Part shown: in pieces, positions 1 to 3,000 of the stretch
Position numbering within the stretch: the stretch's first letter is position 1
Layout of the letters: each line of letters starts with the position of its first letter
Origin: a virus
Lineage: Duplodnaviria; Heunggongvirae; Uroviricota; Caudoviricetes
Length of the DNA stretch: 43,570 nt
Strand: one strand, 5' to 3'
Virus record (IMG/VR): IMGVR_UViG_2522572023_000011
Position numbers: made by a program

Positions 1-3000
1 ATGACGAAGAAAAAAGCACATAAACCTGGTTCAGCGACCATCGCGCTTAACAAGCGCGCCCGTCACGAATACTTTATCGAAGAAGAGTTCGAAGCGGGAC
101 TTGCCCTGCAAGGCTGGGAAGTTAAATCCCTGCGCGCAGGAAAAGCCAATATCAGCGACAGCTACGTCCTTCTGCGTGACGGAGAGGCATTTCTGTTTGG
201 CGCTAACATCACGCCAATGGCCGTGGCCTCCACGCATGTGGTGTGCGATCCTACCCGTACCCGCAAGTTACTTCTCAACCAGCGCGAACTGGACTCATTG
301 TACGGTCGCGTCAATCGAGAAGGCTATACCGTAGTGGCGCTCTCCCTGTACTGGAAAAATGCCTGGTGCAAAGTGAAAATCGGCGTCGCCAAAGGTAAGA
401 AACAGCACGATAAACGTTCAGATATCAAAGAGCGCGAATGGCAGGTGGATAAAGCGCGTATCATGAAAAACGCCCACCGTTAAACCTGCACTCCAATTAT
501 TGACCAGTTCCTCACCGCGCCTCCCTCTCCGGCGGCGCGAATGAACATCTTATTGGTTATCACATCCGACACAAATGTTGCCATTCCATTGCTTAATCGA
601 ATAAAAATCAGGCTACATGGGTGCTAAATCTTTAACGATAACGCCATTGAGGCTGGTCATGGCGCTCATAAATCTGGTATACTTACCTTTACACATTGGG
701 GCTGATTCTGGATTCGACGGGATTTGCGAAACCCAAGGTGCATGCCGAGGGGCGGTTGGCCTCGTAAAAAGCCGCAAAAAATAGTCGCAAACGACGAAAA
801 CTACGCTTTAGCAGCTTAATAACCTGCTTAGAGCCCTCTCTCCCTAGCCTCCGCTCTTAGGACGGGGATCAAGAGAGGTCAAACCCAAAAGAGATCGCGT
901 GGAAGCCCTGCCTGGGGTTGAAGCGTTAAAACTTAATCAGGCTAGTTTGTTAGTGGCGTGTCCGTCCGCAGCTGGCAAGCGAATGTAAAGACTGACTAAG
1001 CATGTAGTACCGAGGACGTAGGAATTTCGGACGCGGGTTCAACTCCCGCCAGCTCCACCACTTTAAGAAGGACTACAACCGGACAGTAGCAATAAATACA
1101 GCCACTTACGGACACAAGCCAGACAGTAGTCGGACTGAAAAAAGACAAAAATATACACGTGAAATGCACGTGCACTTCTAAAAAACCCCAGTTATCACCG
1201 ACTGGGGTTTTTCAATTTGTAACTAAGGGTAACAAAAACACCCCCGTTTTTTTCATCTCACTCACCTTGACACTGTTTATTTGTACAGTTAAAAATAACA
1301 CTGTATACAAACACAGTATAGGGGGACTTTTATGCGTATTGAAATCTGCATAGCCAAAGAAAAAATGACTAAAATGCCAAACGGTGCTGTGGATGCGTTA
1401 AAGGAAGAATTAACCCGACGCATCAGTAAACGTTATGACGATGTAGAGGTGATCGTAAAAGCCACCAGCAACGATGGCCTTTCTGTTACGCGCACCGCCG
1501 ATAAAGATTCAGCTAAAACTTTTGTTCAGGAGACTCTGAAAGATACCTGGAAGTCTGCTGACGAGTGGTTTGTTCACTAATTAACACGTAAAATCGGTAA
1601 CGGCTGGAAATCATTCAATACTCGCACTATCGAAAGTTCACCAGCCAACAGCGGTAAGTTCTTTCATACGACGTGCCGCGGATCCTATTATTCTAGTATG
1701 AAATCCCTAACCGATTTCAAATTCTCCAGACTGCTCAGATTCTCTTTTATCCCACGCTGGCGCTGATAAATCTCGTCATTGCAATCGACCTGCGCTATCG
1801 CTGCCGCAGTTCTTCCAGTTTCTGCATCGATAACTCCATCTTCTGAGCAATAAACCTCACCTATGCAATATTTTATGTCAATTATTTCAATTGCATTAAT
1901 ATCTTGAATGGATTACATAGAGTTAATGTATCCAGTACTCCCTATTCTCTTGCATATAATACATGTTGCAACTTACATCTCAGCGCTATGAAAAAACACC
2001 ACCTCTCTCTTTATGAAATTCTGGATTTACCAAGCGCTAATTTATCATTTCAATCTACCTTTAAGCATTGCATTTATCTCCCTACGAGGTCATACTTTAG
2101 GAAGTTAAATATGAATGATAATATACCTACAGCGCGAAATCACAAACAATCGACTTGTATTACAGAAAAAACATGCCTATCTTTTTAAACTTCACAGCAG
2201 GCAGTATCTTACCTGAGAATGAGCTAGCATCTTTACGTTATATTGTGCAGCAAAATCAAAATGATACTGTAATCATAAAAGAACGTTATAAAATGGATAT
2301 CCGTTATATCGAATCAGTCAATGGTTTTACAGTAAATCCTGTATGCAGTAATCATTTCTCCATATTTATGGCGAGACAAAACACTATTGCTCGCAACCTG
2401 GAACAGCAGATCAACAACGGACGAAGTTTTGCACAAATATCTCAGGATTTTATGCTTCAATTATCTTCAAATATAGGATGGAAAAAAGGGGCCGAAAACG
2501 CCCTTAAAAATAAAATCCATTCTCATTCATTTGTTGTAAATCCTGATGAATTCTCTTGCGACACACAATTTCTTAAGTGCCCAATAACATTATGCGTTCC
2601 AGAAAAAGGGGTTTTTGTCAAGAACGCACTGAACTCCAACATATGCACTCTTTATGATAAGTCTGCATTCATGAATCTCACAAGAGAACATCTACCCCAC
2701 CCTCTCAGTAGGGAAAAGATAGTAAAAGAAATGATTATTGAAAGGAATATGTGTTATTTTGACACCATAAGTCAGCATTTCATAATTATGGATGCAGACC
2801 AACAGAAACAGCATTGTAAATAAAATGTAATAATTACATACTATTAGTGATTCTCATGCATCGTAAGCGGCTCGCCAGAACCGTATTGATATTTACTGAG
2901 CGCTCAGATCAACTTTCCATGGCAACAGATCGCGTTCCCGGTTTGCCGGCCAGTCCTGGATATGCTCCCGCCGACAATATTAATGGCCAGGAAATGTTTA

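Follow-up and report, generated by a model that had tools for sequence, protein, structure and literature searches.

Two putative LexA operators precede a DinI-like gene in a mobile cassette at the ssrA end of a defective lambdoid prophage

The IMG/VR record IMGVR_UViG_2522572023_000011 is a stretch of 43,570 nucleotides (nt) of Caudoviricetes DNA, whose whole length we call the window. Close to the tmRNA gene ssrA in this window lies a small gene related to dinI, and two palindromes upstream of it resemble operators of the SOS repressor LexA. The locus raises the question of whether these palindromes place the gene under SOS control, as a preliminary description of the window had proposed, and of what kind of element the gene and its control region form. 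We consider it quite probable that the element is a self-contained moron encoding a LexA-repressed and SOS-induced DinI paralogue that acts on RecA filaments. The parts of the element, in window positions, are as follows.

1267 to 1272, plus strand: -35 hexamer TTGACA from a promoter scan; also the 5' boundary of the mobile cassette, and part of an annotated promoter in mEp460 and VT1-Sakai
1271 to 1290, no strand assigned: distal LexA box CACTGTTTATTTGTACAGTT (core 1273-1288), which fills the -35/-10 spacer; 21.9 bits
1290 to 1296, plus strand: -10 region TAAAAAT, with two possible readings, TAAAAA (17-nt spacer) and AAAAAT (18-nt spacer); nearly invariant in an alignment of 14 copies
1299 to 1318, no strand assigned: proximal LexA box CACTGTATACAAACACAGTA (core 1301-1316), over the predicted transcription start (about 1303) and the early transcribed region; 21.5 bits
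1320 to 1326, plus strand: Shine-Dalgarno-like sequence AGGGGGA, 5 nt before the ATG, with a purine-rich equivalent in all aligned copies
1332 to 1580, plus strand: DinI-like family gene of 82 amino acids (aa), WP_001217542.1; Pfam PF06183, E 1.1e-18
1581 to 1680, plus strand: conserved 3' untranslated part of the cassette with a hairpin at 1651-1679, an intrinsic-terminator remnant; 3' boundary

The pattern CTGTNNNNNNNNACAG (CTGT-N8-ACAG) has exactly two matches in the window, at 1273-1288 (CTGTTTATTTGTACAG) and 1301-1316 (CTGTATACAAACACAG). Their centres, 1280.5 and 1308.5, are 28 base pairs (bp) apart, exactly as first described. By count alone, such a pair is unremarkable, since 0.48 matches are expected and two or more occurred in 8 of 100 shuffled sequences. 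The scoring of LexA binding sites, which had been suggested as a check, is more discriminating. For this scoring we used a weight matrix of 20 nt made from about 30 E. coli LexA boxes; its scores are approximate. The distal and proximal boxes reach the scores listed above, far ahead of the next best site in the window (12.9 bits), and on the same matrix both outscore 19 of 30 known LexA boxes. The window holds two sites of at least 15 bits, versus a mean of 0.3 and a maximum of one among 30 shuffles. No further LexA-like site of at least 13 bits is present in the window, i.e., nothing signals an SOS-controlled induction module. We give only bits and ranks; a heterology index, as we reconstructed it, failed to match published values. 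The description of both boxes as perfect holds for the 16-mer core, but the 20-mers deviate from TACTGTATATATATACAGTA at five positions (distal box) and four positions (proximal box). A chance origin of the boxes is nevertheless untenable, given their scores, the results with shuffled sequences, the placement of both boxes within 44 bp inside the region's best sigma-70-like promoter, and the DinI open reading frame (ORF) downstream.

The promoter predicted by the scan consists of TTGACA, a spacer of 18 nt and AAAAAT at 1291-1296, with 10 of 12 matches. The annotations of VT1-Sakai and mEp460 use the reading with the 17-nt spacer, whereas the scan gave 18 nt. The distal box fills this predicted spacer and the proximal box covers the predicted start, which bears out the earlier statement that the operators overlap the -35/-10 spacer and the start region. 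Between the proximal box and the ATG at 1332 there are 13 nt, counted from the end of the 20-mer, or 15 nt, counted from the end of the core. The boxes have the following sequence properties of LexA operators: each is a palindrome with an A/T-rich centre, each overlaps the predicted promoter or start, and their arms are conserved across diverged orthologous promoters.

We assessed this conservation by comparing about 95 related loci. An alignment of 14 diverse copies, including those of CP-1639, mEp460, BP-4795, YYZ-2008 and P-EibC, spans ssrA, yehV, yecD/E and int-adjacent positions. A seemingly intact ORF, along with sufficient sequence in front of it, was available for 75 copies, which represent 31 distinct haplotypes over the 70 nt before the ATG. 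Both boxes are kept in 73 of these 75 copies, and in 29 of the 31 haplotypes. Klebsiella phage P18-100 retains the proximal box only, and the distal box of BP-4795 is degenerate. Variability per column was determined from 28 distinct 66-nt haplotypes of 75 intact 82-aa copies. The least variable upstream columns are the CTGT and ACAG arms of the boxes, with values of 0.00 and 0.009 for the proximal box and 0.089 and 0.045 for the distal box, whose arms read CTGT or CTGG and ACAG across copies. The inner N8 (0.11) and the segment between box and ATG (0.21) both vary more than the arms. Together with an annotated "putative SOS box" in VT1-Sakai and the analogy of LexA-controlled homologues in Gifsy prophages (both discussed below), the retention of the boxes supports, at the level of sequence and comparison, the proposal that the gene is under SOS control.

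The assignment of the gene to the DinI family proved correct. The match to PF06183 scores 67.7 bits (cut-off 24.2) and covers profile positions 1-63 of 63, corresponding to residues 16-80 of the protein, which also aligns end to end with the E. coli DinI structures 1GHH and 7YWA (E 2.9e-12). Proteins of this 82-aa type make up a large family in Enterobacteriaceae prophages. Work using electron cryomicroscopy and mutagenesis has identified the DinI residues that contact RecA, namely a pocket (L13/L21/W71/W77/F78) and an acidic patch (E24/E69/D76) (PMC9926225). In our alignment, the counterparts of these residues in the 82-aa protein are M15, L23, W73, W79, F80, E26, D71 and E78, all of them identical or conservative. 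Because the contact residues are conserved, binding to RecA filaments is the most likely activity of this DinI paralogue, which on the same grounds would be expected to affect RecA. The ratio of nonsynonymous to synonymous substitution rates (dN/dS), 0.08-0.24 versus diverged copies, indicates purifying selection. The operator arms have stayed this constant even though the synonymous sites of the gene have almost reached saturation in comparisons of the most divergent copies (dS 0.8-2.6).

The distribution of the element shows that it is not tied to this locus. Relatives of the region occur in 5,116 of 5,426 complete E. coli genomes, and near full-length copies are found in 1,542 of these genomes (about 28%) and in about 110 phage records, mainly of Shiga toxin (Stx) phages of the Stx1 and Stx2 types and other lambdoid phages. 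The O145 record RM9872 has six matching places, and there are up to nine per genome, of which some may be partial copies. At all integration sites the similarity starts exactly at the -35 hexamer (1267), whatever sequence precedes it, and in about 70 of the approximately 95 loci it ends at 1675-1681, right after the hairpin. The gene on the 3' side varies in identity and orientation over 91 loci and is mostly convergent; the unit is therefore monocistronic. Given its boundaries, its terminator and its variable neighbours, the cassette is an autonomous moron of about 414 bp that comprises promoter, two operators, gene and terminator.

Juhala et al. 2000 are said to have described the morons of lambdoid phages as insertions of a promoter, a gene and a terminator. 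The cassette resembles such morons in being an autonomous transcription unit with sharp boundaries, in occurring in unrelated phage backgrounds and in its position in the cargo region near the attachment site (att). For most morons that have been described, expression takes place in the repressed prophage, whereas this cassette is predicted to be silent until the SOS response. The family has its own promoter and terminator and discrete boundaries; the window copy has these only in part, as its terminator is degraded. In most copies the hairpin has an energy of -14 to -22 kcal/mol, with pairing kept by different stem sequences, and a T-tract follows. The window hairpin reaches -8.6 kcal/mol, compared with about -17 kcal/mol as a typical value, and is followed by GGATCCTATT instead of a T-tract, at the junction with the cargo gene nleG7. 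Two further nleG-linked copies (L002 and L033) have kept a strong stem and lost the T-tract; window positions 1651-1690 were compared with the loci L021, L035 and L056. These comparisons use folding of each sequence separately, and a column-wise covariation count was dropped because insertions and deletions in the 3' arm misalign the variants.

It might be supposed that the cassette is part of an antirepressor induction switch, since LexA-controlled dinI homologues head the antirepressor operon of the prophages Gifsy-1 to Gifsy-3 (dinI-antirepressor-irsA), and Tum of phage 186, an antirepressor fusion, has a DinI-like half (PMC3121763). The Gifsy genes are indeed the closest experimental parallel. 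Each has a terminator-like palindrome and a LexA box upstream, and replacement of this segment abolishes induction by mitomycin C (PMC3121763); nalidixic acid induces these homologues 4.6- to 23-fold (PMC8072944). In common with them, the window has a prophage-borne DinI-family gene and a LexA box between promoter and ATG. However, the Gifsy-1 homologue belongs to a different subfamily, with only 41% identity to the window protein and a shorter coding sequence of 234 bp. The Gifsy genes have a single box over the -10 element and lie in the nin region, after the replication genes, whereas the cassette has two boxes and is att-proximal. Moreover, the plus strand has no ORF of at least 30 aa in 1581-1903, and neither an antirepressor ORF nor an irsA homologue lies downstream. 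The monocistronic structure, the variable neighbour and the lack of any other LexA-like site of at least 13 bits likewise speak against such a switch. A fusion of the Tum type has 146 aa, and a protein of 82 aa with a DinI domain at 16-80 leaves no room for an N-terminal antirepressor domain. We rejected the antirepressor switch on this anatomy, i.e., downstream ORF, position and domain content, and attach almost no probability to it.

The closest relative with an annotation is the orthologous cassette of the Stx1 phage VT1-Sakai (Sp15, AP000400.1), whose dinI (H0001) region is 95.7% identical over window positions 1400-1680. It shares the promoter, the two palindromes, the 82-aa ORF, the att-proximal position and the terminator hairpin. 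In the record AP000400.1 the counterpart of the proximal box is already labelled "LexA protein, putative SOS box", and a "putative promoter of H0001 and H0002" is marked as well. Its distal site (CTGG...ACAG) scores 16.4 bits, as against 21.9 bits in the window, and has no SOS-box annotation; the spacing is 29 bp rather than 28 bp. The two loci also differ in the downstream gene, which is ykgJ-like in VT1-Sakai and nleG7 in the window, and in that the window allele encodes lysine at residue 74 and has the weakened terminator. In CP-1639, dinI adjoins ssrA exactly as in the window, and mEp460 annotates the promoter. The same cassette is also present in the cdtI phage, YYZ-2008 and many Stx1 and Stx2 phages. 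The element is thus already known: it is a common SOS-box/dinI cassette that had been annotated before in lambdoid and Stx phages of E. coli. What our analysis adds is that the distal operator sequence matches the annotated proximal one in strength and conservation, that the cassette has exact boundaries, that the RecA contacts are kept, and that there is an nleG7-linked lineage with a degraded terminator.

The chromosomal dinI genes of E. coli, Salmonella and Klebsiella, which belong to the SOS regulon, share fold family, length class and RecA contacts with the window gene, and are repressed by LexA from a box near the start. Unlike them, genes of the window type are mobile, and one genome can carry several of them. 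Of the two boxes of Salmonella dinI, the first is strong and the second very weak (heterology index 4.0 and 17.6; PMC8072944), whereas both boxes of the window are strong. A dinI-like gene of strain CFT073, c0943, changed along with sulA, dinI, umuD and recN in an array study (PMC2817434).

We next consider the position of the cassette in the genome, for which three context features are needed.

698 to 1060, plus strand: ssrA (tmRNA), found by ARAGORN; Rfam RF00023, 292.8 bits
1182 to 1216, plus strand: strong hairpin and T-run between ssrA and the cassette, in the phage-borne arm; AAAACCCCAGT...ACTGGGGTTTT, -16.9 kcal/mol, then TCAATTTG
2173 to 2823, plus strand: nleG7 type III effector gene, outside the conserved cassette; Pfam T3SS_NleG, E 5e-48, and RefSeq

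The -35 hexamer begins 206 nt beyond the 3' end of ssrA. The final 49 nt or so of ssrA (from about 1012) are a copy of the phage attachment site. At the genome end of PhiR12_1, an induced phage, the last 49 nt or so of ssrA are joined to this same arm, after which comes the same dinI cassette. Because this genome end contains the ssrA 3' segment, the prophage boundary lies inside ssrA, at about 1012, and the locus is truly at a prophage end next to ssrA, as had been stated. At window position 1017, within ssrA, the window has C (GAGGACGTAGG), and CP-1639, PhiR12_1 and the O121 locus have T; this substitution in the strain's tmRNA is presumably phage-derived. The hairpin at 1182-1216 is restricted to relatives integrated at ssrA, and is likely a terminator that shields the promoter of the dinI-like gene from transcription coming from ssrA. 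The Gifsy dinI homologues have comparable terminator-like palindromes upstream (PMC3121763).

Over window positions 1061-3000, identity to the E. coli O145:H28 strains RM12761 and RM13516 is 100%. The RefSeq gene order is smpB, ssrA, the "DinI-like family protein" WP_001217542.1, nleG7, a hypothetical protein and tail-fibre genes on the opposite strand. Within a defective lambdoid prophage, the cassette occupies the variable cargo region that separates the attachment site from the tail-fibre genes, and the remainder of the window is the late region of this prophage, read backwards. At the window's end, an IS3-family insertion element cuts the replication gene O (about 43190-43570; L100:4988-7032), with ypjA beyond it. 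At this ssrA locus no int, excisionase, immunity region or intact O gene is left. Since ypjA lies past the truncated O gene, the prophage has lost its integrase and immunity regions and is defective. The same IS3-family element (WP_369872373.1, with a programmed frameshift) occurs a second time at 4402-5615, with an ALIL pseudoknot at 4683-4799; this copy is inserted among the tail-fibre genes, with a C-terminal fragment on one side and the gene of an N-terminal domain on the other. An Rfam scan of positions 1-6000 at a permissive E-value found only the tmRNA and this pseudoknot, and nothing real in 1061-2200.

We infer LexA occupancy, SOS inducibility, RecA binding and a physiological effect of the cassette from the features above, and the following sequence of events can be proposed. 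In undamaged cells, LexA dimers on both operators would shut the promoter. LexA at the distal box, in the spacer, would block the binding of RNA polymerase, and LexA at the proximal box, over the start, would block initiation or escape. Upon DNA damage, filaments of RecA on single-stranded DNA would trigger the self-cleavage of LexA, both operators would be vacated and the 82-aa protein would be made. This paralogue would join the host DinI pool on RecA filaments and stabilise them, and UmuD, LexA and CI-type repressors would face its competition for the same RecA groove (PMC9926225). The outcome might be that SOS mutagenesis and prophage induction are tuned in amplitude and timing. Two mid-strength operators would be expected to give lower basal expression, and later and sharper induction, than a single box, and it is from the presence of two operators that control might be called tight, the word originally used for it. 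Face-of-helix cooperativity is not an obvious expectation at a spacing of 28-29 bp (about 2.7 helical turns).

Several points weigh against this proposal. The -10 element, which may be TAAAAA or AAAAAT, is a weak or ambiguous one. The protein has only 47% identity to E. coli DinI, and its score against the NCBIfam DinI equivalog NF007893, 69.9 bits, is below the cut-off of 111; on these two grounds we regard it as a paralogue of chromosomal DinI rather than as DinI itself. Codon 74 (1551-1553) encodes lysine where DinI (E72) and 63 of the 75 copies have glutamate; the remaining 12 copies also have lysine. This residue is within the motif W-E-x-A-D-D/E-W-F, is not among the listed RecA-contact residues, and as lysine makes the C-terminal acidic helix less negative. 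Pseudogenised copies exist in O121 and avian pathogenic E. coli loci. As the prophage carrying the cassette is defective, any benefit on the phage side is moot in this strain. When the Gifsy dinI homologues were removed by non-polar deletions, no effect on prophage induction could be detected (PMC3121763), so that the physiological role may be a subtle one. Finally, we found in the literature no experiment on LexA binding, SOS induction or function of the E. coli 82-aa subfamily. The supplements of a ciprofloxacin transcriptome of enterohaemorrhagic E. coli (EHEC) contained nothing on 82-aa dinI-like genes, and a scan of genome contigs with the single protein returned only 4 close loci and no distant relatives.

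Some of these points could be taken to mean that the cassette is a decaying relic, i.e., that the palindromes are merely inherited and have no present function in a defective prophage. The loss of int, the immunity region and an intact O gene fits this idea, as do the pseudogene copies elsewhere, the E74K allele at a nearly invariant residue and the degraded terminator. In addition, most E. coli, including K-12, keep only a 157-nt remnant beside ykgJ. However, the ORF, the promoter, both boxes and the Shine-Dalgarno sequence of the window copy are all intact, near full-length copies are as frequent as reported above, and the dN/dS values together with the conservation of the operator arms indicate selection at the level of the family. 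A functionless relic is possible for this defective prophage, not for the family, and overall we judge decay to be very unlikely.

The remnant in K-12 and most E. coli chromosomes (L015:1501-1657, between ecpE and ykgJ) is 87% identical to window positions 1523-1679. It consists of the dinI-like 3' end and the terminator and lies immediately upstream of ykgJ. A ykgJ-like gene also directly follows the cassette in VT1-Sakai (H0002, L102:1906-2106) and in strain OkiPb01681, which suggests an ancient phage-derived pair of dinI-like gene and ykgJ at the ykgJ locus.

The gene that follows the cassette in the window, nleG7, is co-directional and begins 590 nt downstream of the DinI-like ORF. This arrangement permits an alternative in which the transcript from the SOS promoter reads through the crippled terminator into nleG7, coupling DNA damage to effector expression. 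Apart from the shared direction of the two genes, we detected no intrinsic terminator on the plus strand in 1580-2200 and no convincing promoter-like site just 5' of nleG7. The window terminator is weak and its T-tract was replaced at a recombination junction, and the T-tract is also lost in the nleG-linked loci L002 and L033. In BP-4795 and the O121 ssrA prophage, too, the gene after the cassette is a co-directional effector gene, nleA-like in the former and espK in the latter. Nevertheless, there is no translation over the 590 nt, and 1581-1850 is rich in C and poor in G (C 0.28, G 0.17), which favours Rho-dependent termination before nleG7. The variation of the neighbours over the 91 loci, most of them convergent, implies that any coupling to nleG7 is no conserved design, and the AT-rich effector region (GC content 0.32) is typical of horizontally acquired genes that are regulated independently. 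We therefore consider read-through into nleG7 unlikely.

Type III effector genes recurrently adjoin the cassette: the nleA-like gene of BP-4795 (L007), espK of the O121 ssrA prophage (L009) and nleG7 are co-directional, and nleC is convergent; the loci concerned include those of Stx phages (L013 and L014). Because of this recurrence, the cassette forms one edge of the exchangeable effector locus of those phages. Between nleG7 and the tail-fibre genes, on the minus strand at 3048-3923, lies an ORF of 291 aa, the RefSeq hypothetical protein WP_000491541.1, without a Pfam or NCBIfam match. Its place within the exchangeable effector region makes it a candidate for an effector that is so far uncharacterised.

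The 3' untranslated part of the cassette has two further aspects. RefSeq places a "capsid protein" pseudogene fragment of 72 nt at 1577-1648 on the minus strand, overlapping this part; it looks like a spurious call. In Klebsiella, dinI gives rise to DinR, a 3'-derived small RNA that pairs with the ftsZ leader (PMC10907235). A comparison of duplex energies with those of shuffled sequences gave no sign of a DinR-like RNA in the window cassette, as 164 of 300 shuffles had a duplex energy at least as good, and we rejected this candidate. The 3' region folds no better than shuffled sequences (z -1.33), and its consensus fold is almost without covariation outside the terminator.

Since the cassette was already known, our analysis carries little weight as a discovery. 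Its practical use is a rule for annotation, by which the cassette is recognized from an edge promoter, two LexA boxes, an 82-aa DinI paralogue and a terminator hairpin. About 28% of complete E. coli genomes harbour such paralogues, frequently more than one, which is of note for work on RecA activity, SOS mutagenesis and Stx-phage induction. We consider it improbable that read-through makes nleG7 damage-inducible, or that the several tandem-operator DinI paralogues of EHEC prophages act together as a dosage-dependent brake or timer on RecA-mediated repressor cleavage; if the latter were true, multi-copy DinI paralogues would bear on the induction of Shiga-toxin phages. More generally, if the paralogues modulate the co-protease activity of RecA, they would have a bearing on the release of Shiga toxin that is triggered by antibiotics.

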